A stretch of DNA of 64,000 bases from Candidatus Daviesbacteria bacterium (GTDB lineage Bacteria; Patescibacteriota; Microgenomatia; Daviesbacterales; UBA10151): NCBI GenBank assembly GCA_016183245.1, contig JACPEY010000011.1:5568-69567 (forward strand). Reading direction: 5' to 3'. Shown here piece by piece: positions 15,598-63,846 of the stretch. Position 1 is the stretch's first letter. Every line of letters starts with the position of its first letter. The notes beneath the pieces were generated by a model. It did no database searches and was not told the DNA's origin. It saw nothing but the letters and a program-made list of their open reading frames with translations. Made by a program: the position numbers and the translations under genes.

Positions 15598-15631
15598 AAA
15601 GACAGTCACAAGGACTGCTTTTTTTGTAAAG
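15598..15631 (-). terminator. Candidate bidirectional intrinsic terminator just 3' of tRNA-Lys(UUU).
   Basis: The stem-loop gacagtcacaaggactg is flanked by A-runs and T-runs on both strands. Confidence 0.4.
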
Positions 15632-15703
15632 TGAGCCGGCAGGGGATCGAACCCTGGACCAAGAGCTTAAAAGGCTCCTGCTCTACCGCTGAGCTACCGG
15701 CCC
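15632..15703 (-). tRNA. tRNA-Lys(UUU).
   Basis: A manual cloverleaf gives acceptor GGGCCGG/CCGGCUC, D-arm GCUCAGCGGUAGAGC, anticodon loop CUUUUAA and T-arm GGGUUCGAUCCCC. No CCA is encoded. Confidence 0.8.
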
Positions 15704-15784
15704 TCGCCCGCAACGCCAGCAAGCTGGCTTGCGTGGCGGGCGGGCCTCCTTGACGCAAACCAAACTCGTTTAACTAGCATTGCA

Positions 15785-16027
15785 TTAAATTCTATCCTTC
15801 AAAAACCGTCTGCCAAATCCTGTTTTAAAATACTGTTCCCTTCTAAACGCCTTATGCTTATCTGTGCAACCTTCAAAATAAACTAACTCTAATGGCCTTC
15901 TACTTTTAGTTGATTCTACTAACCCATCATTATGATCTTTAAGTCTTTGTTTTATAACAGATGTTGCTCCAACATAGAGCTTTCCATCCTTAATGCTTTT
16001 AAGAACATAAGTATAATAGAAACTCAT
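15785..16027 (-). CDS. GIY-YIG nuclease-superfamily protein (UPF0213-like).
   Basis: The motifs YTYVLKS...KLYVGATSVIKQRLKDHN are present. Confidence 0.65.
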   Translation of the reverse strand: MSFYYTYVLKSIKDGKLYVGATSVIKQRLKDHNDGLVESTKSRRPLELVYFEGCTDKHKAFRREQYFKTGFGRRFLKDRI

Positions 16028-17729: not shown

Positions 17730-18869
17730 GTGATATTTATTAAAAAAGTTGAGAGTTTTGGAAATGCATATTTTGATCCTTTACAGGATGATGTGGAGAT
17801 TTCTGTAAGGACAGGAAAATTACACCCAAATGACCGGGAGAAGATTTCTGAGATGGTCAAATCAGCGAATAAGAAATTGTTTATTCCCCACTACTATGAA
17901 TGGATTTTTGATGGTAGCGTTAAGTTGGTAGGAGTAAAGCTATATACTCCATCTATTATTGCTTCTGCTTCCTTTCCTGTCATTGCGAGGAGCGAAGCGA
18001 CGCGGCAATCCTCAACGAATTGGGAAGATCGCCACGCTATCGCTCGCGATGACAAAAAGGTTTCTGCAGTCAAGGTGTTTTTTGATTTATCAGTAGGGCT
18101 TACAATTGAAAAAGAGATAGACGGGGTATACATAGCTTCTGAGAAAATATTTGACCTTAACAAACCCGGAGAATCATTTGAGAATCTAGTTTTTAGACTG
18201 GTGGAATCTGCCATTACTTTTCCCCGTTCCCTGATACTTTTTAAACTGGCGGATAAATCAGAAGGCCTGCCTGACGGCAAGGCAGGCATGGGTAAAGTGC
18301 GCGGCAGTTTGCGGTTGCTTCATCAGAAAAGTTTATTTGATCCTCTTTTGGAAGTTTTAGATTTTGCCCGTCACAAAAAAGGACTGACAAATATTCATAT
18401 AGTCATACCATATGTGCGGGGTGTAAATGAGCTTCTAAAAATAAAAAGAGAACTGGCTGTCCGGAAGCTCTCCAGAAAAAATTCATTAGGGCATTGGATG
18501 GAAATAGCTTTACCGGAAAATATTATTAATTTGGAAGATTATTTGATTGCAGGGATTGACGGGGTTGTTTTAAACCTTGATGAACTGATTTCCCACTTGA
18601 ACGGATTTGATATCAAAGAAGAAGAGCTGATATTTTATAAAAATGAGGCAGAGGGGTTAATGAAGTTTTTAGAAGACGGCATTAGGCTTTTACATAAATC
18701 AAAAGTTCCTTTTATAGCATCCGGTACTTCAACTTTTAATCAAAAAATGTTGGAGTTTTTAGTGGAGAAAGGGGTAACGGGGGTGGTGGTAGAAAAATAT
18801 GAAGCTCACTCTGCTAAGGATTTATTGCATCAGACAGAAAGAAGGATAGTTTTAAGAAGGGTGGAATAG
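17730..18869 (+). CDS. PEP-utilizing-enzyme-like protein (resembles the C-terminal TIM-barrel of PEP synthase/PPDK) carrying an in-frame palindromic insertion.
   Basis: The blocks NIHIVIPYVRGVNELLKIKREL and IAGIDGVVLNLDELI resemble the PEP-utilizing barrel. The 25-aa segment VIARSEATRQSSTNWEDRHAIARDD is encoded by a 75-bp palindromic element. Confidence 0.35.
   Translation: MIFIKKVESFGNAYFDPLQDDVEISVRTGKLHPNDREKISEMVKSANKKLFIPHYYEWIFDGSVKLVGVKLYTPSIIASASFPVIARSEATRQSSTNWEDRHAIARDDKKVSAVKVFFDLSVGLTIEKEIDGVYIASEKIFDLNKPGESFENLVFRLVESAITFPRSLILFKLADKSEGLPDGKAGMGKVRGSLRLLHQKSLFDPLLEVLDFARHKKGLTNIHIVIPYVRGVNELLKIKRELAVRKLSRKNSLGHWMEIALPENIINLEDYLIAGIDGVVLNLDELISHLNGFDIKEEELIFYKNEAEGLMKFLEDGIRLLHKSKVPFIASGTSTFNQKMLEFLVEKGVTGVVVEKYEAHSAKDLLHQTERRIVLRRVE
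17979..18053. repeat. MITE-like palindromic element (GTCATTGCGAG...CTCGCGATGAC termini), 75 bp, in frame inside a CDS.
   Basis: The termini gtcattgcgag and ctcgcgatgac form a perfect 11-bp terminal inverted repeat. The 75-bp length (a multiple of 3) preserves the reading frame. Confidence 0.6.
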
Positions 18870-19535
18870 TAAAATATATTCGCCTTTGGGATTTTTGAGA
18901 GTTTCCAGCCAACTTGAAACTGGTTTTGTTTCAACGCTTTGGTGGATTTTGGTCAGTTCATGAGCCAAAGTGATATTAATGTTTCCAAAAACTTCTTTAA
19001 TGCTTTCTATAATCCTGATTAATTTATGTGGAGCTGCAAACATTATATATGTCATCTCCCCGGGTGTCCTATCTGATTCACCCCCCAGGTGGATAAACTG
19101 AGAAAGGAATTTTTTTCTATGGCCGGGCTTTTCCGGCGGGTATCCTAAAAACATGAATTTATCAGGTGGCAGGCCGGATAAAGTAAGTGCTGTGATTGCT
19201 GATGACGGCCCTGGTAAGGAATCAACTTTAACTTCCTGTTGCAAGCACTCTCTGATTAGTTTATACCCGGGATCAGAAATTAAAGGGGTGCCGGCATCAG
19301 AAACCAGGGCCAAATTTTGGCCGTTTTTTAGACGATCGACAATAGTTTGTACACTTCGGGCTTCGTTATAGTCATTTAAAATAATTAGAGGTTTATGAAT
19401 GTTATAGTGGTTCAATAGCAGGGACGTTCTTCTGGTGTCTTCACAAATAATTCCATCAACTGACTCAAGAGTCTCTAGCGCTCTTAGGGTAATGTCTTTG
19501 AGATTGCCGATAGGAGTGGCGACAATATATAGCAT
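18852..19535 (-). CDS. rsmI: 16S rRNA (cytidine1402-2'-O)-methyltransferase RsmI (tetrapyrrole-methylase family) carrying an in-frame REP insertion.
   Basis: The family motifs LYIVATPIGNLKDITLRALETL and ICEDTRRT are present. The inserted peptide HLGGESDRTPGE is encoded by REP copy 2. Confidence 0.8.
   Translation of the reverse strand: MLYIVATPIGNLKDITLRALETLESVDGIICEDTRRTSLLLNHYNIHKPLIILNDYNEARSVQTIVDRLKNGQNLALVSDAGTPLISDPGYKLIRECLQQEVKVDSLPGPSSAITALTLSGLPPDKFMFLGYPPEKPGHRKKFLSQFIHLGGESDRTPGEMTYIMFAAPHKLIRIIESIKEVFGNINITLAHELTKIHQSVETKPVSSWLETLKNPKGEYILLFHPS
19057..19094. repeat. REP-like palindromic element, copy 2, inside the rsmI coding sequence.
   Basis: The sequence ccccgggtgtcctatctgattcaccccccaggtgga matches the family consensus. 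Confidence 0.6.
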
Positions 19536-19555
19536 AAATTTGGGGCAAGAAAATA

Positions 19556-20179
19556 TTATCTTTTAAATTTCTTAATAATACTTGCTCTAATTTCAGCATC
19601 AACTAAGATATGATGCAGTACCGGAAGGATTGAGGCAAAAATGATTAGTCCGATAATAGGAAGAAGGTATTTATCAACATCAGGGATCAGGCTTCCCAGG
19701 TAAAACCCCAAAATAGGGATAGCAATGGCCCAAAGAATTCCTCCAATAAGATTAAACATCACAAACTTTTTGTACTGCATCAAGCCAACTCCGGCAACCA
19801 CAGGTGCGAAAGCACGTATAACTGGAACAAATCTTGCTAAAATTATAGTTTTACTGCCGTGCTTCTCATAAAATTTTTGAGCTCTTTCAAGATGATTCTT
19901 ATGAAACCAAATTGATTTTTCCTTATTAAAAAGTTTTCGTCCAAATTTTTGTCCAATGTAATAACCTACACTATCCCCTAAAACAGCAAAAATAAAGCTG
20001 CCGGCAACTAAAAATTTTATATCCAATACACCTTGCGAGGCTAAAAATCCAGCTGTAAACAAAAGAGAATCACCCGGGAAGAAAAAGCCTATCATCATGC
20101 CTGATTCCAGGAAGACTATGGCAAAAACCCCGAAATAACTAAAAGTTTTAATTAAGGTTATCAAATCGATTGGAAGCAT
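19556..20179 (-). CDS. DedA/SNARE-associated-family membrane protein.
   Basis: The motif FLESGMMIGFFFPGDSLLFTAGFLA is typical of DedA. Confidence 0.8.
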   Translation of the reverse strand: MLPIDLITLIKTFSYFGVFAIVFLESGMMIGFFFPGDSLLFTAGFLASQGVLDIKFLVAGSFIFAVLGDSVGYYIGQKFGRKLFNKEKSIWFHKNHLERAQKFYEKHGSKTIILARFVPVIRAFAPVVAGVGLMQYKKFVMFNLIGGILWAIAIPILGFYLGSLIPDVDKYLLPIIGLIIFASILPVLHHILVDAEIRASIIKKFKR

Positions 20180-27813: not shown

Positions 27814-30800
27814 ATGGCTGACAACACCTTTGAATATGACTTAACTTTGCCGCTGCCTCCAGAGGTAAAGGATAAGGATGTTGAGGTAAAAGCTGCTGAA
27901 ACAGAAGCAGAATTGCCTTCTGCACCTAAATTAGATGAGCCAAAAGAAAAGTTAGCAGAAACGATTACTATTAAAGGGTTAAATCACTTTACAGTTTTTG
28001 TGATAACTTTGCCCAGTCCGGATACTGCACAAAGGGTATTAATTAATGAAATATTACCAAACCCGACAGCCGGGGCAGAATGGGTAGAGCTGTTTAATAA
28101 TGGAACACAACCTGTTAATTTAGCAGCCGGGACTGGCTGGACTATAAGAAATTCAGCCTCTGATGCTCAATCTTTGAGTGCTTTGGGGACTATTCCGGCA
28201 GCAGGCAGGGTTGTATTTGAAGCCCCTGCAAACTGGTTAAGCAATGTTGCCCCAGAGACTGTTACTTTATCAAACGAGTTGGGTACAGCAGTTGATACAG
28301 TAACCATATCTTTAGTTGCGCCCGGATTTGCAATTGATCACTATCCTCTGGCAGGCGAGTCAGTCGGCAGAAAGACAGATGGCGTGGCAGAATGGGTAAT
28401 CTTTACAGCTCCGACAAAAGGGACAGCTAATTTACTACCGGCAACCGGCGGTGCGGGAAAATTGGCTGAAGTTGGACCAATTGCCCCAGCAGGTGGATTA
28501 AGAGCAGGATTCCCGGTTTGGTATAAAGATTCCAATGGTTTGGCTCTTGATTTGATGGAAGCGGCAGATCCGAGGGGGATTTCTGATCCTGTTGACCCTG
28601 GTAATCCATTTTCTGCTCAAATAGGATTTAATGCTGAAGGATTTTGGTGGTCTGCCGAAGCAGATATGTCAACCTCAGGACCAAATGGTGCTCTCCTAGT
28701 TCAGGCTATAGAAGCTGCATTTGCCGGAGAAGCTGCAGTAGATGGTGAGCAATCAGCCTTTGCCAGAGCCAGAATCAGGATTGATGTTGCCGAACCTGGA
28801 ACTTATACTGTAACTTATCCTTATGGCACAAAAACTTACACTGTAGCTTTGGCTGATATCGGCCCGGGATACGAGATTAATGATACTGCCGATATTGGTT
28901 GTTTTGCCATTCCGGGAGTACTAAATTGTGCCAGTGCGACCCAGCCTAATTTCTCAACGGTGCTAAATGGAGGAATCGGACCATTCTTAACCTGGGATAC
29001 CTTCAATACAAATCCGGCTCTTTCGGATCCGCTTTTGACTGATCCAATTACCGGAAGAAGATATGTAGGTAGTGTTTTAGGCGGGCCTCATGTAGTCAAA
29101 GGTTCTCCAACAGGTAATAATTTCTTTAGAATTGCCGGGCCAAATATCGGAGGACCAGGAGTAAATGTAGTAGAAACAAACCTATTTACTGTTACCGGAA
29201 GATTGGCAGATGCTACAGGTCCTGTTATAACCCTGCATGGGGCAAACCCAGTCAACGTCAATCAGAATGCTGTTTATACAGATGCAGGAGCCACAGCCTT
29301 GGACGACCAGGACGGAAATATAACTGCTAACATTCAAGTAACCGGTCTTCCTGTAGACACTTCAACTTTGGGATCTAAAACTGTGACCTACACCGTTACT
29401 GATAGTGCAGGCCATACTACAACAGCAACTAGAACTGTTAATGTAGTAGCTGTTGGAGGTATAGATATTACGGCTCCTGTTATTACGGTGACTGGTGCTA
29501 ATCCAGCAACAGTTACTGCCGGAACTCCGTATAACGATGCCGGGGCAACAGCATTAGATAATGTAGACGGAGATATTACAGCCAATATTGTGACCACCGG
29601 TCTACCAATAAATACTTCTGCACCCGGTTCATTTGCTGTAACTTATACTGTCTCTGATGCAGCCGGAAATCCTGCTACAGCCGCAAGGACTGTAAATGTG
29701 GTAGCAGATATTATTCCGCCGGTAATTACTGTGCTTGGATCAAATCCGGTAAACGTGCTTGTTGGTGCGGCATATACTGATGCCGGCGCTACAGCAGTAG
29801 ATAATGTTGATGGAAATGTAACAGTAAATATCACAACTACCGGCTTACCTATTAATACTGCTGCAGCCGGTTCATTTGCTGTAACTTATAATGTTACTGA
29901 TGCTGCAGGCAATACTGCTACAGCTACCAGAACTGTAAATGTAGCTGCAACTCTTCCTGCAGGACTTGTTGAAGTCGGACCCGTAGCCCCAGCAGGTGGA
30001 TTAAGAGCAGGATTCCCGGTTTGGTATAAAGATTCTAATGGTTTGGCTTTGGAATTAATGGAGGCAGCAGATCCAAATGGTATTTCTGCTGCTGTTGACC
30101 CTGGTAATCCATTTTCAGCTCAAATTGGTTTTGGTGCTGAAGGCTTTTGGTGGTCAGCCGATGCCAGTATATCTACTTCGGGGCCAAATGGTGCAATTTT
30201 AGTACAAGCTGTTGAAGCTGCATTTGCCGGAGAAGCTGCAGTAGATGGTGAGCAATCAGCCTTTGCCAGAGTCAGAATCAGGATTGATGTTGCCGAACCA
30301 GGATCTTATACTGTAACTTTCCCCTATGGTACAAAAACATATGTGGTAGATGCTGTAGGTGCAGGGTTTGAAATTAATGACACCTCAGATATTGGCTGTT
30401 TTGCCCAAATAGGAGTTGCCAGTTGTAATCAGGCCACACCTCCTAATTTCTCTACTGTACTTGCAGGTCAAATCGGACCATTCTTGACCTGGGATACCTT
30501 CAATACAAATCCGGCTCTTTCGGATCCTATCCTGACCAATATTGCAACCGGGAGAAGATATGTAGGTATTCCGGTGCCTCATGCAGTCAAAGGTTCTCCA
30601 ACAGGTAATAATTTCTTTAGAATTGCCGGGCCAAATATCGGAGGACCAGGAGTAAATGTAGTAGAGACTAATCTGTTTGATGTTACCGGACGCATAGCTG
30701 ATGTAACTCCTCCGGTTATCACTCTAAATGGTGCCAACCCGGATACTGTTGTACAAAATGCAGTATATGTGGACCCGGGATCCATAGCTTTGGATGACTT

Positions 30801-33606
30801 TGATGGAAATGTAACAGGTAGTATTGTAACTACAGGTGTGCCTGTTGATACATCTATAGTAGGCGCAAAAACTGTTACTTATACAGTTACTGATATAGCT
30901 GGTAATACAGCCGTTGCAACTAGAACAGTCAATGTAACCGGAGTAGATAACACTGCACCTGTCATTACCTTACTAGGTACTAGCCCTGTGGATGTCACAG
31001 TTGGCACGGCTTATGTTGATGCCGGTGCTACTGCTTTAGATAATGTAGATGGTGATCTAACAGCCAGTATAGTAACTGTTAATCCTGTAAACAGCAATGT
31101 TATTGGTACCTATACAGTTACTTACAACGTCTCAGATGCTGCCGGAAACCCTGCAATAGAAGTTACCAGGACGGTTAACGTAGTGGCTACGACTGATGTT
31201 ACTCCCCCAGTTTTCAGTGCTATTTCTGCAAGTTCTAATAATGCCAATCCGGCTTTGGGCAAAAGCGGTGATGTTGTGACTGTTTCTTTTGTCACCAGCG
31301 AGCCATTATCTGCCAATCCGACAGTGACTATTGGTGGTGGAGCAATGACTTTTGTCTCTCTGGCTGGTTCAACATACACATTTAACCGCACTCTGGATGG
31401 TACAGAGATTGAAAGCGGACAAATTTCCATCACCGGTTCTGATGCAGCCGGTAATCCAGGTGCCAATAATACTGCTACTTTTGCCTTGGACTTTGCACTT
31501 CCAACAGGATCGATTGCTATAAACGGTGGCGCCCTTTATACGACCACGACTGCAGTTATTTTAAATTTTTCCGGAGTTTCAGCTGATGTGACTCAAATTC
31601 AACTTCGAAACGGCACAGTTGGAGCTTTTCAGACAGCAATTCCTTTTGAAAATCCCCACGCTTATGTTTTACCTAATACCCAAGGGGTAAGAGTTGTATC
31701 TGTCCGTTTTATTGACGCAGCCGGAAATCAAAGTACCGGAGTAATTTCAGATGATATTACTTTTGATAATGTTGCCCCGACTGATCCATTGGACGTAGTT
31801 TCTACCAGCCACACTGCTAATGTATCTACGGACAATACTATTGATATGGCCTGGTCTGCGGCTGGTGCTCCTCTAGGAGCAAATGACTTGGTTAGCGGAG
31901 TAGCCGGCTATTCTTATTCTTTCACTCAAGGGGCAACTGATTTGCCTGATACTACAGTGGATTTGCCTTCAACTGCCTTGGGTGTAACCAGTGAAGCTCT
32001 AACAAATGGTACTTGGTTTTTCCACCTTAGAACTCTGGATAATGCCGGAAGTTGGACTTCAACTGTTCATGTTGGGCCATTTAATATTGATGTTGTGGTT
32101 CCGACTACAGGTACAATTTCCGGTTTGGTATTTCAGGATACAAACGCTAACCGCACCAAAGATGCGGGTGAACCGGTTCTGCCCGGATGGACGCTGTATC
32201 TGGATGCAAATAACAACAGGGTGCTGGATGCAGGGGAGGTATTAATTGTAAGCGATGCCGCAGGTAATTATCAGTTTGCAGGACTGCTTCCAGGAACTTA
32301 TAATATTAATGAAGTTAAACAGCCAAACTGGGGTATCAGGTTACCGGGAGACAATGGTTATACACAAATATTGGCTGCAGGGGATAATATCACAGGTAAG
32401 GATTTTGGGAATATAGTTACCCGGTCGGTTAGCGGCCAGGGCCAGGGAGGATTTGCAACAACTACCGGAACAACTCTGACGCCATCGGTTGTGTCAGTTG
32501 GCGACTCTGTCATTGATGTCCCTTCAAACGGGGGTACAAGCAAAGTGACAGTCCCTGCTGATACTATAATTACCGAAAGCACCGGCGCAGTTTTTGATTC
32601 GGCAGCTTTGGCAGCCTCTGACCCGGCTGGTGCGGTGATATCAGGGTTGGGAACAGGTGTTGTAGTTCGGGGAAAACTGCAATGGGGAGTTCCCAACTTA
32701 GGGTTAGTATTCTCAAACCCGATTAATTTGGAAATCTTTGTCGGTACAGATCTTAATGGGCAGGTACTTGATATACTGCGCTCAGTTGAAGGTACAACCA
32801 ACTGGACAAGTGACGGAATTGTGCCTCCGGGCAAATGCACGGTTGCAAACGGCATATGTGCGTTTCAGGCTACAAAAGCTTCATATTATATTGCAGCTCA
32901 AACTGTCAGTCCAACCCCGACACCTACTCCGACTCCTGCATCTGCTACTACCAGCGGTGGTGGAGATAGCGGAAGCGGTGGGGGAAGCGCCAGTGCTCCG
33001 TCTTGCAATGATCCTGTTGCAGGAGGCGCACCGACTTTACTCTCGGCAACTGTATCAGGAGACAATCAAGTTACCTTAACCTGGAGCAAAGCTGCTGATC
33101 CTGTAACACACTATGTAGTAGCTTACGGGTTATCAGCAGGCAACCCGCAATTTGGAAATCCAAATGTTGGCGGGAAAGAGACAACTTCTTATACAGTAAA
33201 AGATCTTTCAGGCGGTACAACTTATTTCTTCAGAGTCAGGGCAGGAAACGGTTGTAATGCCGGTCCTTACTCAAACGAAATATCAGCAACTCCCGGCGGA
33301 AGACAGACAACAGGTCCTGCAGCTGGTTTCCAGGCTGGAGTGTTAGGTGCTTCGACCTCGCTGGGAGAAGGCACGGGTGGTGCTGATCCTAATAACCCAG
33401 ACGCTCCTGATGCAGGCAAGGGTGAAGATGCAGTTACGGAAGGGATTTCTGATATCCTGGGTGCAGATCAGAAAGTAAGCGATAAACCTAACCAGTCATT
33501 TGGAGGTTTCTTGAATACTCAAAGGGCTATTATCGGGGTGTTGCTGCTATTCGTCGCACTCTTTGCTGCTAATGCTTATCGTCTAAGGGCCCGTCGCCGC
33601 AGTTAA
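27814..33606 (+). CDS. Giant 1930-aa surface protein with a lamin-tail domain, two copies of a ~250-aa module, about 6 DUF5011 Ig-like repeats, a Cna-B/SdrD-like fold, a PT linker, FN3, and a C-terminal TM plus basic tail.
   Basis: The lamin-tail motif INEILPNPTAGAEWVELFNNG is present. The DUF5011 repeats have the form PVITLxGxNPxxVxxGxxYxDxGATAxDxxDGxxT. The FN3 domain reads LTWSKAADPVTHYVVAYGL...YFFRVRAGN. The C-terminus is IIGVLLLFVALFAANAYRLRARRRS. Confidence 0.8.
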   Translation: MADNTFEYDLTLPLPPEVKDKDVEVKAAETEAELPSAPKLDEPKEKLAETITIKGLNHFTVFVITLPSPDTAQRVLINEILPNPTAGAEWVELFNNGTQPVNLAAGTGWTIRNSASDAQSLSALGTIPAAGRVVFEAPANWLSNVAPETVTLSNELGTAVDTVTISLVAPGFAIDHYPLAGESVGRKTDGVAEWVIFTAPTKGTANLLPATGGAGKLAEVGPIAPAGGLRAGFPVWYKDSNGLALDLMEAADPRGISDPVDPGNPFSAQIGFNAEGFWWSAEADMSTSGPNGALLVQAIEAAFAGEAAVDGEQSAFARARIRIDVAEPGTYTVTYPYGTKTYTVALADIGPGYEINDTADIGCFAIPGVLNCASATQPNFSTVLNGGIGPFLTWDTFNTNPALSDPLLTDPITGRRYVGSVLGGPHVVKGSPTGNNFFRIAGPNIGGPGVNVVETNLFTVTGRLADATGPVITLHGANPVNVNQNAVYTDAGATALDDQDGNITANIQVTGLPVDTSTLGSKTVTYTVTDSAGHTTTATRTVNVVAVGGIDITAPVITVTGANPATVTAGTPYNDAGATALDNVDGDITANIVTTGLPINTSAPGSFAVTYTVSDAAGNPATAARTVNVVADIIPPVITVLGSNPVNVLVGAAYTDAGATAVDNVDGNVTVNITTTGLPINTAAAGSFAVTYNVTDAAGNTATATRTVNVAATLPAGLVEVGPVAPAGGLRAGFPVWYKDSNGLALELMEAADPNGISAAVDPGNPFSAQIGFGAEGFWWSADASISTSGPNGAILVQAVEAAFAGEAAVDGEQSAFARVRIRIDVAEPGSYTVTFPYGTKTYVVDAVGAGFEINDTSDIGCFAQIGVASCNQATPPNFSTVLAGQIGPFLTWDTFNTNPALSDPILTNIATGRRYVGIPVPHAVKGSPTGNNFFRIAGPNIGGPGVNVVETNLFDVTGRIADVTPPVITLNGANPDTVVQNAVYVDPGSIALDDFDGNVTGSIVTTGVPVDTSIVGAKTVTYTVTDIAGNTAVATRTVNVTGVDNTAPVITLLGTSPVDVTVGTAYVDAGATALDNVDGDLTASIVTVNPVNSNVIGTYTVTYNVSDAAGNPAIEVTRTVNVVATTDVTPPVFSAISASSNNANPALGKSGDVVTVSFVTSEPLSANPTVTIGGGAMTFVSLAGSTYTFNRTLDGTEIESGQISITGSDAAGNPGANNTATFALDFALPTGSIAINGGALYTTTTAVILNFSGVSADVTQIQLRNGTVGAFQTAIPFENPHAYVLPNTQGVRVVSVRFIDAAGNQSTGVISDDITFDNVAPTDPLDVVSTSHTANVSTDNTIDMAWSAAGAPLGANDLVSGVAGYSYSFTQGATDLPDTTVDLPSTALGVTSEALTNGTWFFHLRTLDNAGSWTSTVHVGPFNIDVVVPTTGTISGLVFQDTNANRTKDAGEPVLPGWTLYLDANNNRVLDAGEVLIVSDAAGNYQFAGLLPGTYNINEVKQPNWGIRLPGDNGYTQILAAGDNITGKDFGNIVTRSVSGQGQGGFATTTGTTLTPSVVSVGDSVIDVPSNGGTSKVTVPADTIITESTGAVFDSAALAASDPAGAVISGLGTGVVVRGKLQWGVPNLGLVFSNPINLEIFVGTDLNGQVLDILRSVEGTTNWTSDGIVPPGKCTVANGICAFQATKASYYIAAQTVSPTPTPTPTPASATTSGGGDSGSGGGSASAPSCNDPVAGGAPTLLSATVSGDNQVTLTWSKAADPVTHYVVAYGLSAGNPQFGNPNVGGKETTSYTVKDLSGGTTYFFRVRAGNGCNAGPYSNEISATPGGRQTTGPAAGFQAGVLGASTSLGEGTGGADPNNPDAPDAGKGEDAVTEGISDILGADQKVSDKPNQSFGGFLNTQRAIIGVLLLFVALFAANAYRLRARRRS

Positions 33607-34514: not shown

Positions 34515-36548
34515 ATGGCAAAATTTCAAATTGTTTCAGATTTCAAACCTACTGGGGACCAACCACAAGCCATTGAGAAGCTGGTTAACGGGATAAATAA
34601 AGGCAGACAGCACCAGGTTTTGCTTGGAGTAACAGGTAGTGGTAAGACTTTTACTATGGCTAATGTTATCCAGAAAGTGCAAAGGCCGACCCTGGTTATT
34701 TCCCATAATAAAACTTTAGCAGGACAACTGGCTCAGGAGTTTAGGTCTCTGTTTCCAAATAACGCTGTTGAGTATTTTGTTTCTTATTATGATTATTACC
34801 AGCCAGAAGCGTATATTCCCCAATCAGATACTTATATTGAAAAGGAAACCCAGATTAATGAGGAAATAGAAAAGTTAAGGCTGTCTGCAACTGCATCACT
34901 GCTTAGCAGAAAAGATGTGATAGTAGTAGCCTCAGTTTCTGCAATCTATAACTTAGGTTCTCCAATAGAGTATGGCCAGGCAATACTGGAAATCGGCCCG
35001 GGCATGAAAGCCGGTATGCAGCAGGTGATGAAGATTTTGCAGAAGATGTTTTATAAGCGCAATGATATTGATTTTAAAAGGGGGACATACCGGGTCAGGG
35101 GTGATACGGTTGATATTTTTCCTTCATATAAAGATCAAGGTTACAGGTTACAATTTTTAGGGGACAGACTGGAGAGTGTAAGCGAGTTGGAGGTTGTGAC
35201 AGGTAATGTTTTAAAAATGCAGGGAACGCAGACTATTTATCCTGCCAAGCATTACATTACTTCGGAACAAAGGATTGTGCCGGGAATTAAACAAATAGAA
35301 ATCGATTTAGAATCTAGAGTCAAGAGTCTAGAGTCAAGTGGAAAATTGATAGAAGTGCAGAGATTAGACCAAAGGACAAATTATGATTTGGAGATGATCC
35401 GGCAATTCGGGTACTGCAACGGAATTGAAAATTACTCCCGCTATTTTGACGGCCGGAACCCCGGGGACCCTCCATATACTTTGCTTCATTACTTTCCTCA
35501 AGACTTTTTGCTCGTTATTGATGAATCCCATATGACTATCCCTCAAATTCGGGGGATGTATAACGGGGACCGGTCAAGGAAGGAAACTTTAATAGATTTT
35601 GGGTTCAGGCTGCCTTCGGCTTTGGATAACAGGCCCTTAAAGTTTGATGAGTTTATGAGGATGATTAACCAGGCAGTTTATGTTTCAGCCACTCCGGATG
35701 AGTATGAATTATCCCTAGCGAATTCATCCCACCTGGGGGGTGGTCTAGATAGGACACCTAGGGGTACTGATGGGTTGTATAGCCATGATGGGATAGCGGA
35801 ACAATTGGTCAGGCCAACTGGGATTTTGGATCCGGAGGTTTCTGTAAGACCGATTAAAGGTCAAATTGAAGATTTATTAAGAGAAATAGAGACTAGAGTC
35901 AAGAGTCAGGAAAGGGTATTGATAACAACTTTAACCAAAAGAACAGCTGAAGATTTGGCAGATTATTTAAAGGAAAAAGGCATTAAGGTGCACTATCTGC
36001 ACTCTGATGTTAAAACTTTAGAAAGAGGGGATATTTTACAGGCTTTGAGGTTGGGGGAATATGATGTGATTGTGGGAATTAATTTACTTCGGGAAGGTCT
36101 GGATTTGCCGGAAGTTTCACTGGTGGCAATTTTAGATGCTGATAAGGAAGGGTTTTTAAGGTCCAGGACTTCTTTGATACAGACCATGGGCAGGGCTGCC
36201 AGGCATGTTAGAGGGCAGGTAATTATGTATGCCGACATTGTCACCAAATCCATGAAAGCAGCCATAGATGAGGTAAAAAGAAGGAGGAAATATCAGGCAG
36301 ATTACAATAAAAAACATAATATTACGCCGAGAAGCATAGAAAAAGCTTTACGGGAAAGGTTGATAGAGAAAGTAGAGGAGCTGGAAGAATCTTTGGGTAA
36401 AACAGATTTAACTGTTGATGATATTCCGGTAGAGGATCGGAAAAAAATGATTAAAAACCTGGAAGCCCAGATGAAACAGGCAGCAGAACTTTTAGACTTT
36501 GAAGAAGCTGCCAAAATTCGGGATCAGATTAAGGAGTTAAGTATTTAG
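34515..36548 (+). CDS. uvrB: Excinuclease ABC subunit B (UvrB) carrying an in-frame REP insertion.
   Basis: Walker A (GVTGSGKT), helicase motifs, the VRPTGILDP block and the C-terminal UVR motif (EEAAKIRDQI) are present. The region between YEL and QLVRPTG is about 20 aa longer than the E. coli UvrB sequence recalled from memory, and it contains HLGGGLDRTPRGT. Confidence 0.9.
   Translation: MAKFQIVSDFKPTGDQPQAIEKLVNGINKGRQHQVLLGVTGSGKTFTMANVIQKVQRPTLVISHNKTLAGQLAQEFRSLFPNNAVEYFVSYYDYYQPEAYIPQSDTYIEKETQINEEIEKLRLSATASLLSRKDVIVVASVSAIYNLGSPIEYGQAILEIGPGMKAGMQQVMKILQKMFYKRNDIDFKRGTYRVRGDTVDIFPSYKDQGYRLQFLGDRLESVSELEVVTGNVLKMQGTQTIYPAKHYITSEQRIVPGIKQIEIDLESRVKSLESSGKLIEVQRLDQRTNYDLEMIRQFGYCNGIENYSRYFDGRNPGDPPYTLLHYFPQDFLLVIDESHMTIPQIRGMYNGDRSRKETLIDFGFRLPSALDNRPLKFDEFMRMINQAVYVSATPDEYELSLANSSHLGGGLDRTPRGTDGLYSHDGIAEQLVRPTGILDPEVSVRPIKGQIEDLLREIETRVKSQERVLITTLTKRTAEDLADYLKEKGIKVHYLHSDVKTLERGDILQALRLGEYDVIVGINLLREGLDLPEVSLVAILDADKEGFLRSRTSLIQTMGRAARHVRGQVIMYADIVTKSMKAAIDEVKRRRKYQADYNKKHNITPRSIEKALRERLIEKVEELEESLGKTDLTVDDIPVEDRKKMIKNLEAQMKQAAELLDFEEAAKIRDQIKELSI
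35727..35764. repeat. REP-like palindromic element, copy 3 (reverse orientation), inside the uvrB coding sequence.
   Basis: The sequence tcccacctggggggtggtctagataggacacctagggg matches the family consensus in reverse. Confidence 0.65.
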
Positions 36549-37803: not shown

Positions 37804-37840
37804 TTCCACCTGGGGGGTGGGCTAGGTAGGACACCTAGGG
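37804..37840. repeat. REP-like palindromic element, copy 4, at the 3' flank of the RAYT.
   Basis: The sequence tccacctggggggtgggctaggtaggacacctaggg matches the family consensus. Confidence 0.65.
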
Positions 37841-37862
37841 AAATTAGATAATTTCAAGTTTA

Positions 37863-38612
37863 CTATTCCTGTACGAGATGTTGAATTTTATGAAGTTGTC
37901 TTTGATAATCGGCATGGTCTTCGATAAATTTTTGATAAACCTTAGGATTTATGAAAAGGCTCATTATTATATCTAAATTACAAATCTCAGCCTTATTACT
38001 TAGATATTCAGAGAGGGATGACCAGGGATATGCAAATAAGGTATTTAGATCCTTTACGACGTAGGAGGTATAGGGATTGAGATGAATGTATCTTGAAATG
38101 TGTATTAACTGTTCATCAGTTATGATTAGTTTAGCTTTAAATTGATCTAAGAAGAGTGATCCATCGCGTTCTCTTTTAGTATTAGAATATCTAGTGTAGC
38201 TATTTTGAAAATTCCCCAAAAATTTAGAAATTCCCTTATCTTTAATTTGTTTTATTAAAAAATGGAAATGATTTGGCATTAAACAAAAAGCCAGAATTTC
38301 TACAAGCTTATCATCTTCTTTCCTCAAATTATCCATAATTTTTGTCCGGTCATCATTTGAAAGTGTTAGAAATTTTGATAATTTAGCGGGAAGATTGCTG
38401 AATCTATAGAAGTCGATTACAAGCCTTGCTCTTTTGTATTCCAGTTTATCTAAGAAAGTTGGTTGATGATTTATCCCACGGTTAAAAACATGATAAATTT
38501 GGTCATTAACTAAAGGTGTTAATCTACCCGGCATATTTCTTAGAATAACCCTGATATCCCTAGGTGTCAATAGAAATCCACCCCCCAGGTGGACTATACT
38601 ATTCAGATTCAA
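37863..38612 (-). CDS. REP-associated tyrosine transposase (RAYT; IS200/IS605-like Y1 HUH transposase).
   Basis: The N-terminal block YHVFNRGINHQPTF, the HUH motif NHFHFLI and the catalytic-Tyr block RYIHLNPY are present. The first ~17 codons (HLGGGFLLTPRD) are REP-encoded, so the real start may be the internal Met at ~38534. Confidence 0.75.
   Translation of the reverse strand: MNLNSIVHLGGGFLLTPRDIRVILRNMPGRLTPLVNDQIYHVFNRGINHQPTFLDKLEYKRARLVIDFYRFSNLPAKLSKFLTLSNDDRTKIMDNLRKEDDKLVEILAFCLMPNHFHFLIKQIKDKGISKFLGNFQNSYTRYSNTKRERDGSLFLDQFKAKLIITDEQLIHISRYIHLNPYTSYVVKDLNTLFAYPWSSLSEYLSNKAEICNLDIIMSLFINPKVYQKFIEDHADYQRQLHKIQHLVQE
38558..38594. repeat. REP-like palindromic element, copy 5, at the 5' end of the RAYT.
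   Basis: The sequence ccctaggtgtcaatagaaatccaccccccaggtgga matches the family consensus. Confidence 0.65.
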
Positions 38613-39294
38613 TACTGCCGGAGCCTTCCTGTTCTTTGTTGACTTGTGGGGGTTCTTCTCTTAGAAAATATTGAATTGTTGGATCATCTTCTTCCCATTT
38701 TTTTATTTTTTCGCGGGCTTCAGTGTTTAAATCGCGTCCTGCAACGGGGATTATTTCCTTTCCCAATCTGTTTAGGATTCCTAATACTTTAGGATCAGCA
38801 ATAGTTTCTCCTGTAACCGGATCCAAGTCTTCATAACTAACCGCAATTTCATCAAATGGGAGTTCTAATGCTCCTTGTAAAGGTATACTGGAAAAATGGC
38901 CTGTCTCCTTCCTTAATTTTTGTGCTTCCTCAATTGACAAAGTTCCTCTTGCTACCCCTAAAGGAATATAAGGATTTGAGGGTTTTTCTTCCTCATTAAG
39001 AGTCCCTCCCTGTAAAGTAATTTCCTGATAGGTTTTAAAGTCAAGTGCCATATACTTAGTATAATTTATTTGATCACGCTCTGCTACTTCACTCTTTAAT
39101 AATCTTGCAAAATGGGGTAAAATAATAGTTTGATTTTTCGAAGAAAAATAGTCCCACGGTTTATTTTTCGGGGAAAATATGGCTATAGACAAAATTACTA
39201 TTAAAGGTGCTAGAGAACATAATTTAAAAAATATTGACCTGGAAATTCCTAAGAACAAGTTAGTGGTTTTAACCGGGATCTCCGGTTCAGGCAA
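38599..39294 (-). CDS. Hypothetical protein with an uncertain start (the annotated 5' end overlaps the uvrA start).
   Basis: The ORF overlaps the first ~115 nt of uvrA on the opposite strand. An internal Met near 39054 is the more plausible start. Confidence 0.3.
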   Translation of the reverse strand: MPEPEIPVKTTNLFLGISRSIFFKLCSLAPLIVILSIAIFSPKNKPWDYFSSKNQTIILPHFARLLKSEVAERDQINYTKYMALDFKTYQEITLQGGTLNEEEKPSNPYIPLGVARGTLSIEEAQKLRKETGHFSSIPLQGALELPFDEIAVSYEDLDPVTGETIADPKVLGILNRLGKEIIPVAGRDLNTEAREKIKKWEEDDPTIQYFLREEPPQVNKEQEGSGSIESE

Positions 39295-42265
39295 GTCTTC
39301 CCTGGCTTTTGATACCCTTTATGCCGAAGGTCAAAGAAGGTATGTAGAATCTTTATCTTCCTATGCCCGGCAGTTTTTGGGAGTCATGGATAAGCCTGAT
39401 GTAGATTTGATTGAAGGTCTTTCTCCTGCGATTTCTATTGACCAAAAAGGTGTCTCACACAATCCTCGCTCTACAGTTGGAACCACCACGGAAATTTACG
39501 ATTATTTAAGGCTTTTATTTGCCCGGGTTGGCCATCCTCATTGTCCTGTATGCGGTAGGGAAGTTGCCAAGATGAGCGTAGAGCAAATTACTCAACTTGT
39601 CATTCTGGGGAGAAGCGGAGCGACGACTCCAGAATCTATTACTAAGGATTCTGGACAAGCCAGAATGACAAAAAGGGGCAGGAGAATAATGATTTTGGCG
39701 CCGGTGGTTAAAGACAGGAAAGGCGAGTACAGCCAGTTATTTGAAGATTTCAGGAAAAAAGGGTTTTCTAAAGTCAGGGTTGGCGGATATATAATAGACC
39801 TGGCTGATGATTTGGTATTAATTAAAACAAATAAGCATACGATTGATCTGGTTGTAGATAGGCTTGTTTTAGATAAGAGTGTCATTCTGGGAGTCCCGAC
39901 GAAGTCGCGGACGACACCAGAATCAACGAATCAGTTAGATTCTGGACGCGCCCCTTCAGGGCCTGCCAGAATGACAAAAGAAAGTAAAGATAGTACTCAA
40001 GCAGACAATATTTACTCAAGATTGTCACAAAGCATTGAGACAGCGCTTAAATTTGGTGAGGGATCAGTGATAGTTTCTGATGTGCTGGATGCTTCTTTGG
40101 AATTCCCTCAAAATCCTAAAAAAATGGAGGACCATCTTTACTCGGAAAGATTTGCCTGTCCTGTAGACAATATCTCGCTGAGCGAGATTGAACCCAGACT
40201 TTTGTCTTTTAACTCTCCTCACGGAGCCTGTCCAAAATGTTCAGGATTAGGGAATCTTTTAGAAATTGATGCAGCTACAATTTTAAATCCAATTCTCTCT
40301 ATAGCAGAGGGCGGAATTCTGCCTATGTCAAAGCTTGCCACAAGTGATACCTGGTATACAAGGCTTATTGAAGCAGTGGGTAAAAAATATGGCTTTGATA
40401 CAAATACAAGGCTGGGGAATCTGACAGCTGAAGCCAAAAAGATATTGCTTTATGGTGGCGCAGATGAAGAATTTAAAGTAGAAGGCAGGAACAGACAGGG
40501 GAAGTGGACTCATTTTTATTCTGAATTTGCCGGGCTGGTGCCTTATCTTAAGGAAAGATATACAACAACTGAGTCGGATTTTGTTAAGGCCGAAATTGAA
40601 AAATATATGGTCAAAGAAACCTGTCCGAAGTGTAAAGGAGCAAGACTTAAAGATGAAGCACTTTCAATAACTATAGATGGATTAAACATTGCAGAAGTTA
40701 CCAGCCAGTCAATTGTTCAGGCTTTGGACTGGATCAAAAGAATTTCCGCTCGTAATGATGGGAAGGTATTAAGTGAGCGTGAGGCACAGATAGCAAGTCC
40801 TATTTTAAAAGAAATTAATGCCAGGTTGCAGTTTTTGATTGATGTGGGATTGGATTATCTGACTTTAGACAGGGCTGCCATGACTCTGGCGGGAGGAGAA
40901 TCACAAAGGATCAGGCTTGCTTCCCAGATCGGTTCAGGGCTTTCCGGAGTATTGTATGTTTTAGACGAGCCTTCAATAGGGTTGCATCAAAGGGATAATA
41001 CCAGGTTGATTGAAACTTTAAAAAAACTCAGGAATCTGGGTAATACTGTGATTGTTAATGAACATGATGCTGAAACAATGGAGGCATCGGATCTTCTGAT
41101 CGAAATTGGTCCGGGAGCCGGTGAACACGGCGGGCAGATTGTAGCTATAGGAACGCCTGATGAAATTAAGAAAAATCCCGCATCGACAACCGGCCAGTAT
41201 TTATCCGGAAATAAAAAAGTCGGAGCAAATATTCTTCAAGCACAGCGAGAATCTTCCTTAAAAACTATTAATAAATATGTGCTTAAAATTTTGGGTGCTT
41301 CTGAACATAACTTAAAAAATATTGACGTTTCTTTCCCCCTGGGAAAATTTATAGTAATTACAGGTGTTTCCGGTTCAGGTAAATCAACTTTAATTCATGA
41401 TATTTTATTTAAAGCTCTAGCCCAAAAAGTTTACCGCTCCAGGGAAAAACCCGGGCTGCATAGGGGCCTGGAAGGAACAGAGAATATAGATAAGGTAGTA
41501 TTGGTAGACCAGTCGCCTATTGGCCGCACTCCCCGTTCAAATCCGGCTACATATACCGGGGCATTTACCCACATCCGGGAGCTGTTTGCCCAAAGCCCGG
41601 AAGCAAAAATCAGAGGCTATAACCCGGGCAGATTTTCCTTTAATGTCAAAGGAGGAAGGTGTGAAGTTTGTGAGGGAGAGGGTACTTTAAAGATTGAGAT
41701 GCAGTTTTTACCGGATGTGTATGTAAGTTGTGAGTCATGTAACGGAGCAAGGTATAACAGGGAAGCTTTGGAAATCTATTTTAAGGAGAAAAATATTGCC
41801 CAGGTTCTGGATATGACGGTTGAAACTGCTTTAAAGTTTTTTGAAAATATTCCTCAGGTTAAAAACAAGCTGCAGGTTTTATTTGATGTGGGGTTGGGGT
41901 ACATTAAGCTGGGACAGCCTGCACCTACTCTTTCAGGAGGAGAAGCCCAAAGGATTAAACTTTCTTCAGAATTATCAAAACGTTCTACAGGACAAACAGT
42001 ATATATTCTTGATGAACCTACAACAGGCTTGCATTTTGCCGATATCGAAAGACTTCTAATGATCCTGAGGAAGTTAGTTAATGTGGGGAATACAGTAATA
42101 ATAATAGAACATAACCTGGATGTGATAAAAAATACTGACTGGGTAATAGATTTAGGCCCTGAAGGCGGAGACAAGGGGGGGAAAATTGTCGCCCAAGGTA
42201 CTCCTGTCCAAATTGCCAAAATTAAAGATTCTTACACCGGCATGTATCTTGCAAAAATACTTTAA
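39179..42265 (+). CDS. uvrA: Excinuclease ABC subunit A (UvrA) carrying two in-frame palindromic-element insertions.
   Basis: Two ABC modules are present, each with Walker A GxSGSGKS (GISGSGKSSL, GVSGSGKSTL), signature LSGGE and Zn-finger CxxC pairs. At 1028 aa it is longer than the ~940 aa typical of UvrA. The extra segments are ...TTPESITKDSGQARMTKRG... and ...TTPESTNQLDSGRAPSGPARMTKES... Confidence 0.9.
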   Translation: MAIDKITIKGAREHNLKNIDLEIPKNKLVVLTGISGSGKSSLAFDTLYAEGQRRYVESLSSYARQFLGVMDKPDVDLIEGLSPAISIDQKGVSHNPRSTVGTTTEIYDYLRLLFARVGHPHCPVCGREVAKMSVEQITQLVILGRSGATTPESITKDSGQARMTKRGRRIMILAPVVKDRKGEYSQLFEDFRKKGFSKVRVGGYIIDLADDLVLIKTNKHTIDLVVDRLVLDKSVILGVPTKSRTTPESTNQLDSGRAPSGPARMTKESKDSTQADNIYSRLSQSIETALKFGEGSVIVSDVLDASLEFPQNPKKMEDHLYSERFACPVDNISLSEIEPRLLSFNSPHGACPKCSGLGNLLEIDAATILNPILSIAEGGILPMSKLATSDTWYTRLIEAVGKKYGFDTNTRLGNLTAEAKKILLYGGADEEFKVEGRNRQGKWTHFYSEFAGLVPYLKERYTTTESDFVKAEIEKYMVKETCPKCKGARLKDEALSITIDGLNIAEVTSQSIVQALDWIKRISARNDGKVLSEREAQIASPILKEINARLQFLIDVGLDYLTLDRAAMTLAGGESQRIRLASQIGSGLSGVLYVLDEPSIGLHQRDNTRLIETLKKLRNLGNTVIVNEHDAETMEASDLLIEIGPGAGEHGGQIVAIGTPDEIKKNPASTTGQYLSGNKKVGANILQAQRESSLKTINKYVLKILGASEHNLKNIDVSFPLGKFIVITGVSGSGKSTLIHDILFKALAQKVYRSREKPGLHRGLEGTENIDKVVLVDQSPIGRTPRSNPATYTGAFTHIRELFAQSPEAKIRGYNPGRFSFNVKGGRCEVCEGEGTLKIEMQFLPDVYVSCESCNGARYNREALEIYFKEKNIAQVLDMTVETALKFFENIPQVKNKLQVLFDVGLGYIKLGQPAPTLSGGEAQRIKLSSELSKRSTGQTVYILDEPTTGLHFADIERLLMILRKLVNVGNTVIIIEHNLDVIKNTDWVIDLGPEGGDKGGKIVAQGTPVQIAKIKDSYTGMYLAKIL
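39599..39669. repeat. MITE-like palindromic element (GTCATTCTGG...CCAGAATGAC termini), copy A, inside uvrA.
   Basis: A 10-bp perfect terminal inverted repeat and an internal palindrome ccagaatc...gattctgg are present. Confidence 0.6.
39881..39975. repeat. MITE-like palindromic element (GTCATTCTGG...CCAGAATGAC termini), copy B, inside uvrA.
   Basis: It has the same 10-bp terminal inverted repeat as copy A and is about 95 bp long. Confidence 0.6.
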
Positions 42266-52652: not shown

Positions 52653-52996
52653 CTTCTACTACGCTTTTCAGGCTATAGGATTAGTTATAGGAGGTGATTA
52701 TCGTAAATGTTACCTTTGGATGTGATTAGAAAATATTATCCTGACTTATCAGATGAAGAATTGAAAAAAATACAGGTGTTTGTTTACCAGTTATGTTGTG
52801 GATTAATGCAATACTTTTATGGAGACAACTGGGAAGGGGATACTGGTGATCCGGACTTGAAAAATGAAGAAGGTTGATATAACAACCTAATCATGAGTTC
52901 GAATCCTAAGCGGTCTCTCGTTTATAGGATTAAATCTAAGCAATTTTTCTCGAATTGCCGAAGCTAAAATTTTGCAAAAGCACTTATATCATCCTG

Positions 52997-53068
52997 TGAG
53001 CCGGGTGGGATTCGAACCCACGGCCAATGGATTAAGAGTCCATTGCTCTACCGCTGAGCTACCGGCCC
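52997..53068 (-). tRNA. tRNA-Lys(CUU).
   Basis: A manual cloverleaf gives acceptor GGGCCGG/CCGGCUC, anticodon stem AUGGA/UCCAU, loop CUCUUAA and T-arm GUGGGUUCGAAUCCCAC. Confidence 0.8.
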
Positions 53069-53263
53069 GTTATAATCTATCTTTCAAAAACTTTCTTCCA
53101 AATCCTGTCTTAAAATATCTTTCTCTTTTCAATTCAATGAGTCCCGCCCGCAACGCCTGAGCAAGCTTCAACATCAAACTACATTGTATATTCTAACAAT
53201 TTATGCTCAAAATGTCATTTCTGGGAACAGAGGGAACAGAAAAGAGGGGTGCTGTAATAATCA

Positions 53264-62792: not shown

Positions 62793-63803
62793 ATGAAAAT
62801 TGGTTATATCGGTCTTGGCAGGATGGGGAAGAATATGGTCCTCAACCTTTTGGAAAAAGGGATTGAGGTGGTGGCATATAACCGGTCCCCTGAGCCCAGG
62901 GAAGAGCTGCAAAAAGAAGCCAGCCAGTTAAAAAGCGGATCAGAGAATTTAAAGGTAGCAGATAATCTGGGAGAGTTGGTGACAGAGTTAAGGAATAATA
63001 AAGAAGATCCTGGACAAGCCAGGATGACAGAAGGGGAGGACGGAATTGTGATCTGGTTAATGATCTCTGCCGGTGCAGCCATTGACGCTGTTTTGGAGGA
63101 ATTAAGCGATAAATTAACTTCCGGAGATCTGGTAATTGATGGCGGAAATTCCCTTTATACAGATACTTTAAGGCGGGGTAAGATGCTTTCCCAAAAAGGA
63201 ATCCATTACATGGATGCCGGCACTTCCGGCGGAATTGAGGGAGCAAGGAATGGGGCTTGTATCATGGCAGGCGGTTCTGAGGAGGATTTTAAGAAAGTGG
63301 AGCCTGTATTAAAAGCTGCTGCACAACCGGGCGCTTATGCTTATCTGGGTCCTCTGGGTGCAGGTCACTTTGCCAAAACAATTCATAACGGAATTGAGTA
63401 TGGCATGATGCAGGCAATCGGGGAAGGTGCGGCAATTTTGAAAAATTCCGGGTTTCCTTATGATTTGCGGGAAGTTTTCCGTATTTACAATACCGGCTCA
63501 ATTATTGAATCAAGGCTGGTGGGATGGACTTTGGCAGAACTTAAAAATGACCCTGAACTTGCCAATATTACCTCTGTTATCGGTTCAGGAGGTGGTGCAG
63601 GTAAAACAAAAGGAGAAGCTCACTGGACAGTGGAACTGGCTAAAAAATTAGGGGTAGGTGTGCCGGTTATAGAAGCATCGGTAGCAGTCCGGGACAACTC
63701 TGATCAGGATAAGGAAGATTCTCCCAATGGTTTCCGTAATAAAATAGTTGCTGCCATGCGCTGGCAATTCGGCAGACATCCGGTTAAGAAACAAATTCCC
63801 TAG
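62793..63803 (+). CDS. gnd: 6-phosphogluconate dehydrogenase (decarboxylating), short YqeC/Gnd-like form. It carries a probable partial palindromic-element insertion, and its stop codon is supplied by a REP.
   Basis: NAD-binding IGYIGLGRMGKNM and the catalytic blocks GTSGGIEGARNG and KTIHNGIEYGMMQAIGEG are present. The extra segment NNKEDPGQARMTEGEDG at 63001-63030 resembles the right end of the uvrA elements. The TAG stop lies inside REP copy 6. Confidence 0.8.
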   Translation: MKIGYIGLGRMGKNMVLNLLEKGIEVVAYNRSPEPREELQKEASQLKSGSENLKVADNLGELVTELRNNKEDPGQARMTEGEDGIVIWLMISAGAAIDAVLEELSDKLTSGDLVIDGGNSLYTDTLRRGKMLSQKGIHYMDAGTSGGIEGARNGACIMAGGSEEDFKKVEPVLKAAAQPGAYAYLGPLGAGHFAKTIHNGIEYGMMQAIGEGAAILKNSGFPYDLREVFRIYNTGSIIESRLVGWTLAELKNDPELANITSVIGSGGGAGKTKGEAHWTVELAKKLGVGVPVIEASVAVRDNSDQDKEDSPNGFRNKIVAAMRWQFGRHPVKKQIP

Positions 63804-63833
63804 GTGTTCTATCTAGACCACCCCCCAGGTGGA
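63798..63833. repeat. REP-like palindromic element, copy 6, overlapping the gnd stop codon.
   Basis: The sequence ccctaggtgttctatctagaccaccccccaggtgga matches the family consensus. Confidence 0.65.
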
Positions 63834-63846
63834 TAAAAATAAAGTT

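Follow-up and report, generated by a model that had tools for sequence, protein, structure and literature searches.

The stretch of DNA analyzed here (the window) is 64 kb of Candidatus Daviesbacteria sequence, and its relevant features are collected in Table 1. It contains a gene for RsmI, the 16S rRNA C1402 2′-O-methyltransferase. The predicted protein matches Pfam TP_methylase and passes the equivalog cutoff of TIGR00096 (217.9 bits against 167.9), with the match spanning positions 1-218 of the 275 of the model. It aligned to the E. coli RsmI structures 5HW4 and 9PZG at E=2e-52, and its top structural and sequence matches were RsmI 5HW4, 9PZG, and 3KWP. It retains the family residue at each of the 51 columns invariant among 120 orthologues and lacks the C-terminal domain present in E. 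coli RsmI. Across the window and the 120 Daviesbacteria orthologues the length of RsmI is 214-265 aa, and all of these proteins match only positions 1-218 of the model. The initial annotation had considered that rsmI might be an interrupted pseudogene; its reading frame runs without interruption over 227 aa. Because the identical RsmI protein is recorded on five contigs across the NCBI and Logan collections, named Candidatus Daviesbacteria, an assembly artefact is unlikely, and this explanation was rejected. The 3′ end of rsmI overlaps the convergent PEP-utilizer-like gene (17730..18869, plus strand) by 18 nt (18852-18869), and the same convergent overlap occurs in locus L007.

Table 1. Genes and repeat copies discussed in the text (positions in the window).
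Feature	Position	Strand	Remarks
rsmI (16S rRNA C1402 2′-O-methyltransferase)	18852..19535	-	intact ORF, 227 aa
diverged REP copy in rsmI	19056..19092	-	translated as residues 149-160, HLGGESDRTPGE
uvrB, second gene with an in-frame REP copy	34515..36548	+	UvrB Pfam domains
REP copy in uvrB	35729-35765	+	2/37 mismatches to consensus; translated as HLGGGLDRTPRG
REP copy 21 nt downstream of RAYT stop	37806-37842	+	inverted relative to upstream copy; best-folding
RAYT-like Y1 (HUH) transposase gene	37863..38534	-	~223 aa from ATG at 38534-38532
REP copy upstream of RAYT start	38556-38592	-	in 64-nt spacer, untranslated; 9 mismatches to consensus
second repeat family in uvrA (39179..42265, +)	39597-39677 and 39880-39977		gives ...DSGQARMTK... 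and ...SGPARMTKE...; each site like an inverted pair
second repeat family in gnd-like gene (62793..63803, +)	63006-63036		gives ...DPGQARMTE...
REP copy over 3′ end of 6-phosphogluconate-dehydrogenase-like (gnd-like) gene	63796-63832	-	gene 62793..63803 (+)

A short palindromic repeat (REP) is dispersed in the window. Five full copies of the ~37-nt element, CCACCTGGGGGGTGGTCTAGATAGGACACCTAGGGAA, were found, where essentially none would be expected by chance, and the 12-mer CACCTGGGGGGT occurs seven times at no more than one mismatch (0.18 expected; none of 100 shuffles reached seven). The core is CCACC-N5-GGTGG (CCACC-TGGGG-GGTGG), and a second stem, CTAGGT/ACCTAG, is present in the best copy. 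Mismatches to the consensus number 1-2 in three of the copies, seven in the one within rsmI, and nine in the one preceding the transposase gene. For most copies, the folded hairpins are not more stable than those of shuffled sequence; only the copy at 37806, which folds as two adjacent hairpins (-9.0 kcal/mol, z=-2.9), is clearly better. Two of the five copies are located mid-gene, one overlaps a stop codon, and two are intergenic; even so, the genic copies (two or three of five, depending on how the overlap is counted) are still below random placement at a coding density of ~0.90. In the overlapping copy, the CCCTAGG motif supplies the TAG stop (63801-63803) of the gnd-like gene, and this copy may have reset the C-terminus of the encoded protein.

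Neither of the end tags GTAG and CGTC belongs to the REP consensus, and the copy at 37806 is the only one that contains GTAG (within GGTAGG); in the related copies of L001-L003, CTAC lies 8 nt from the stem. The flanks of all five copies, read by eye, revealed no target-site duplication. The element differs from a MITE, with its terminal inverted repeats around a core, in that it is a pair of internal hairpins with no duplication in the flanks. A scan of GTDB representatives, a set that does not include the source genome, found the exact REP pattern at 6 loci.

Other repeated sequences were also observed. A second, unrelated palindromic family, GATTCTGGACAAGCCAGAATGACA, with the stems TTCTGG/CCAGAA, is likewise translated in frame, in uvrA and in the gnd-like gene. 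The regions 15631-15847 and 52996-53132 each contain a tRNA-Lys gene on the minus strand (anticodons TTT and CTT). Following each gene on the plus-strand map is a stretch of 63 nt; the two stretches share 79% identity and may be a common promoter or leader. Large diverged direct repeats at 28467-30875 (units of 243-300 nt, 63-86% identical, ~1.5 kb apart) resemble domain repeats inside one long gene or two.

Two inverted REP copies flank the gene of a RAYT-like transposase. The ORF scored 35 bits against Pfam Y1_Tnp (cutoff 23) and 50.2 bits against NCBIfam REP_Tyr_transpos, below the cutoff of 80; the HUH motif (HFH in NHFHF) and the Tyr motif (RYIHLNP) are visible in its translation, and a PDB sequence search with the protein matched no solved structure. 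The longest form of the ORF (37863..38612, minus strand) begins at a TTG that overlaps the end of the upstream gene, and its first 26 residues contain HLGGGFLLTPRD. The earlier claim of a REP translated at the RAYT N-terminus holds for this TTG form only. In a BLASTP alignment to the RAYT of L007, Met27 (MPG...) is paired with Met1 (MPG...) of that protein, which sets the actual start at the ATG of 38534-38532. The repeat is thus a flanking element located before the gene, in the spacer of 64 nt that separates this ATG from the stop codon of the upstream gene (38599-38601). Other bacteria offer parallels in which a REP assigned by annotation to an N-terminus actually precedes the true start (PMC3733652). 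Three independent translated occurrences had been proposed; with the RAYT copy removed, those in rsmI and uvrB remain. The arrangement in the window is the standard REP-RAYT-REP, and the unit is 76-77% identical in DNA in the syntenic relatives L005 and L024. The L005 contig (CAYQAW010000014.1) carries the label “uncultured Gammaproteobacteria bacterium” but shares synteny (uvrB, REP-RAYT-REP, lexA) and 75-79% DNA identity with the Daviesbacteria window and is probably mis-binned.

The presence of a REP in frame inside rsmI, as put forward in the initial annotation, was confirmed to within 3 nt: the ORF is intact, and positions 19056-19091 of a diverged repeat copy encode residues 149-160 of the protein. 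Thirty of the 37 bases of this copy match the consensus. It is 83% identical over 41 nt to the copy at 63797-63837 and 81-83% identical to the dispersed copies of its own genome, the second module included. Both CTAG motifs and the second hairpin are gone, and the fold energy of the copy (-4.6 kcal/mol, z=+0.26) is no better than that of shuffled sequence. At the protein level the changes are G to E, L to S, and R to G.

No Rfam match was obtained for the region 18700-19600 at E up to 1. A role of the hairpin as terminator of the convergent neighbour gene was considered and dropped, because a terminator scan of the rsmI region found none at the repeat; only 19308-19322 resembles a terminator. 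Inside rsmI, in the sense direction, a sigma-70-like sequence (AGGACA-17 nt-TATAAT, 10/12) was noted at 19070..19042 (minus strand), with its -35 hexamer within the REP copy; it is probably a chance match, the region having three such matches versus 2.2 expected.

Comparison with relatives shows that the segment is extra. Locus L024 is syntenic with the window (uvrA, RAYT, uvrB, lexA, rsmI) and possesses the REP-RAYT-REP unit, and its rsmI site is empty, with a clean 10-codon gap (HRIKLLEKLTE----------KVTYIIF in L024 vs HRKKFLSQFIHLGGESDRTPGEMTYIMF in the window). In the alignment with the window protein, the E. coli sequence is interrupted by a gap of nine residues precisely at the insert. 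The peptide could have been an ordinary part of RsmI, conserved in relatives free of the repeat; it is missing from the relatives. The stretch from GY(P/L)PEK to PHKL is the only hypervariable one among the 120 Daviesbacteria orthologues. It measures 32-44 aa in the 78 orthologue loci with DNA (32-34 aa in many of them). The window protein has 42 aa here; for E. coli, our own count on the printed alignment gave 33 aa. A canonical length of 32-33 aa is suggested by this comparison.

The nearest RsmI, P0002, is 84% identical to that of the window outside the segment and carries a different insert; identity to the window protein drops to 73-74% for those orthologues whose peptide is REP-like. Since the L024 site is empty and P0002 has another insert, the rsmI copy appears to be lineage-specific, with the age and polarity of the event loosely bounded by the closest available relative at ~79% protein identity. 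A neighbour-joining tree of the 120 RsmI proteins (206 columns) was too star-like for counting insertion events. The conserved span of the repeat, 35-41 nt, exceeds the net gain of 30 nt, so that either flanking codons would have been lost or part of an older insert would have been replaced. The left junction ATCCAC is common to the window copy and to the different palindrome of the nearest orthologue locus, L010, which hints at replacement or conversion rather than clean insertion.

An AlphaFold2 model of RsmI built on the 120-sequence alignment (mean pLDDT 85.6) puts the insert in a low-confidence loop between helix 139-145 and strand 162-167, with a mean pLDDT of 51 for residues 151-160 and values below 50 for 151-154; the insert is predicted to occupy a disordered surface loop. 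The fold of the model is right, its domain arrangement is unlike that of the crystal structures (TM 0.46, rmsd 13 Å), and it was left unused for distances; that the loop points away from the surface contacting h24a and h45 is our guess.

The inserted peptide might have been exapted, for example as a new 30S contact in an enzyme that is devoid of the C-terminal domain. In E. coli this domain is essential for RsmI activity via its contact with h23b, the last 42 residues being needed, and K148, K150, and H173, which are sequence neighbours of the insert loop, contact h24a and h45 (PMC13037946). The restriction of the 227-aa enzyme to positions 1-218 of the model, the amino acid changes in the copy, and the high frequency of inserts at this position in the clade could also be taken to favor exaptation. 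However, the inserts are wholly different in sequence and length between orthologues, many of which have none, so no common function is required; furthermore, the loop is predicted to be disordered, and REP inserts are found in unrelated proteins (PMC3733652). We consider exaptation very unlikely and infer that RsmI activity has been retained and that the inserted peptide is neutral.

The frame in which the repeat is read had been interpreted as a sign either of selection against disrupting insertions or of an insertion mechanism that tolerates this frame. The consensus REP contains TAG stops in four of six frames (two of three sense and two of three antisense), and the open ones are HLGGGLDRTPRE (sense, HLGG) and SLGVLSRPPPRW (antisense). 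Because the other sense frames hold TAG, a sense-oriented copy surviving in a gene must read HLGG, and no special mechanism is needed for the common frame. HLGG is indeed the frame of all the mid-gene copies found: those in rsmI and uvrB of the window, for which the same relative frame had been correctly reported, and those in rsmI of the L007/L008/L012 clade and of L009.

An insertion mechanism that is itself frame-aware or site-specific would account for the sense HLGG reading of all four or five mid-gene copies, none of which uses the open antisense frame, and for the repeated hits on the rsmI and uvrB sites in different genomes. Yet the information on the reading frame is inaccessible to a DNA transposase, and the pattern is already expected from the stops in four of six frames. 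If two frames are open, agreement among four cases has p ~0.06 at best, the rsmI cases being possibly non-independent. In addition, most copies in the relatives are extragenic, the rsmI site being the exception. Such a mechanism seems to us extremely unlikely. Judged from the frame content of the repeat, selection against disrupting insertions fits, and the common frame is weak evidence for anything special, in line with selective filtering.

The REP copy in uvrB is part of a 21-codon insertion. The segment of UvrB from VSATP to RPTG comprises 47 aa in the window versus 26-27 aa in L005, L025, L030, L078, and L085. The blastn alignments to the window break around the repeat (L005 at 35708-35787, L024 at 35711-35799), and UvrB of L005 reads SLAGDAIAEQL at the insert site. 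Unrelated inserts are present in the same segment of other UvrB orthologues. This segment (window 35690-35800; L007, L009, L016, L063, and L090) is a recurrent insertion site, with lengths from 26-27 aa when insert-free up to 74 aa; the long insert in uvrB of L009, with the peptides VILNEAKRSEES and FADAQDDK, is repeat-derived in look.

Several unrelated families of hairpin inserts were observed at the RsmI loop in loci L010-L093 (e.g., L015:744-854, L056:6457-6567, L069:6391-6507, L092:8001-8747). The extra codons of the RsmI segments of 37-44 aa usually encode perfect palindromes (CGTTTACACCCttgGGGTGTAAACG, TTACTCTAATACacgagaGTATTAGAGTAA, TTCCCACATcgaATGTGGGAA, TTCTCgaccGAGAA). Stems of at least 7 bp, reaching 11-12 bp, occur in 16.7% of these segments; control windows taken from those genes have them in 3.4%, and segments lacking an insert in 0%. 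In two of the insert families pairing is preserved by compensatory changes while the codon register stays fixed: in the first, 96.9% is paired versus 80.4% in shuffles (none of 500 as high), and in the second, 82.7% versus 71.3% (1 of 500 as high), where the structures tested came from these same few insert sequences. The covariation includes a synonymous third position of Arg that varies together with a non-synonymous second position.

Such palindromes, with their compensatory pair changes, could mean that an old hairpin has been resident at rsmI since early Daviesbacteria, maintained because its structure in DNA or RNA is under selection or because quasi-palindromes are corrected by template switching, and perhaps refreshed by conversion with a REP. 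The palindromes of the orthologous rsmI genes were not found elsewhere in the 718 kb of compared loci, and the ATCCAC junction common to the window and L010 also agrees with an old resident. On the other hand, the site is canonical and devoid of a hairpin in L024, as it is in many other orthologues, and the identity of 81-83% to the dispersed copies of its own genome would be hard to keep over the time implied by 73% protein identity. There are also indications of repeated new arrivals. In rsmI of L091 and L093 a second REP-like insert lies beside an older one, and rsmI of L092 bears an in-frame inverted doublet, CACCTggaAGGTG then CACCTtccAGGTG, made of CACCT-N3-AGGTG hairpins; the CACCTtccAGGTG hairpin is found as well in the uvrB hot spot of L063. 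Because these hairpins are dispersed and the inserts come serially and as doublets, the covariation can be explained by independent insertions of REP variants. An old resident hairpin is, in our opinion, unlikely. The assumption that the orthologue palindromes are non-mobile local structures was likewise dropped, given the CACCTtccAGGTGA hairpin in uvrB of another genome and the serial and doublet inserts.

In our reading, most of the RsmI-loop inserts therefore go back to REP variants that arrived again and again at a permissive loop, perhaps with some target preference. The RsmI loop and the uvrB site are hot spots of recurrent insertion across Daviesbacteria, receiving single, serial, and inverted-doublet hairpin inserts. 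We tentatively suggest a broader scenario, which is possible but on balance doubtful, in which REPs with the H-(L/P)-x-G-G frame repeatedly enter the same few permissive loops (the RsmI helix-strand loop, UvrB between VSATP and RPTG, and UvrA), a resident hairpin serves as landing pad or conversion partner, and some inserts are kept for their nucleic-acid structure. If this is true, serial and doublet inserts and compensatory stem pairing in coding sequence would follow from the resident-hairpin landing pad, and REPs would routinely, and with a bias for certain sites, expand the loops of CPR proteins.

Taken on its own, the rsmI segment of the window is very probably a copy of the RAYT-associated REP of the same genome, which landed after the split from the relatives that have the REP-RAYT unit and is now a tolerated passenger. 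The ~37-nt, two-hairpin REP would have entered rsmI in the lineage of this organism after its divergence from the relatives with the same REP-RAYT unit, presumably mobilized by the neighboring RAYT through a single-strand hairpin intermediate. Its persistence may be ascribed to three properties: it is read in the sole stop-free sense frame of the REP, the net gain of 30 nt (10 codons) keeps the downstream frame of rsmI, and the peptide, composed of Gly, Pro, and charged residues, would be accommodated in a disordered surface loop. The copy has later decayed, with changes at 7 of its 37 positions and the loss of the CTAG motifs and the second hairpin, and the most fitting view is of a passenger that the gene tolerates, not of an active element.

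Intragenic in-frame REPs are already known in kind, and the Rickettsia RPEs are the classic precedent (PMC3733652, PMC10969869). Di Nocera et al. (2013, BMC Genomics 14:522; PMC3733652) described REPs located in frame within genes, often in uvrA, uvrB, and other repair genes. The system in Daviesbacteria resembles the REPtrons of that study in its short dispersed palindromes, in the Y1/HUH transposase gene between two inverted copies, in the minority of copies inside known genes in frame, and in the mis-called N-terminal copies. It differs in that the host belongs to the CPR and the decorated gene is rsmI, in that the consensus is without a GTAG/CGTC end tag and consists of two hairpin modules, in that the RAYT scores below the NCBIfam cutoff, and in that one loop has been struck repeatedly across the clade.

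The comparison with RPEs made in the initial annotation is appropriate as regards the outcome, a dispersed palindromic repeat inserted in frame in a housekeeping gene. RPEs (Ogata et al. 2000, summarized in PMC10969869 and PMC3733652) are likewise in-frame palindromes in intact housekeeping ORFs that give family-specific peptides, and the insertions are thought to sit where the fold tolerates them. RPEs were first described at ~150 bp (PMC10969869), which would give peptides of up to ~50 aa, whereas the Daviesbacteria element has ~37 nt and 12 aa; moreover, no relationship in sequence between the two is apparent by eye, and in Daviesbacteria a candidate transposase, the RAYT, adjoins the repeats. 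REPINs (PMC8049555) are comparable in their association with RAYTs and in the inverted in-frame doublet of L092 rsmI, but the rsmI copy of the window is a singlet, and classical REPINs are extragenic. Our search of the literature on RAYT/REPIN and on palindromic repeats or MITEs in CPR found no report of REPs in CPR among the results listed, which is not meant to imply that they are unpublished.

According to these results, an apparently active REP/RAYT system is present in a reduced CPR genome with a coding density of ~90%, and a part of the REP copies persists in essential-type genes as extra surface loops. For the annotation of CPR genomes it follows that unexplained insertions and over-long N-termini can be repeat-derived. 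The inserts in RsmI, UvrB, and UvrA provide a natural data set of permissive loop positions, and the repeated use of one loop across many species would allow target preference to be tested against selective filtering.
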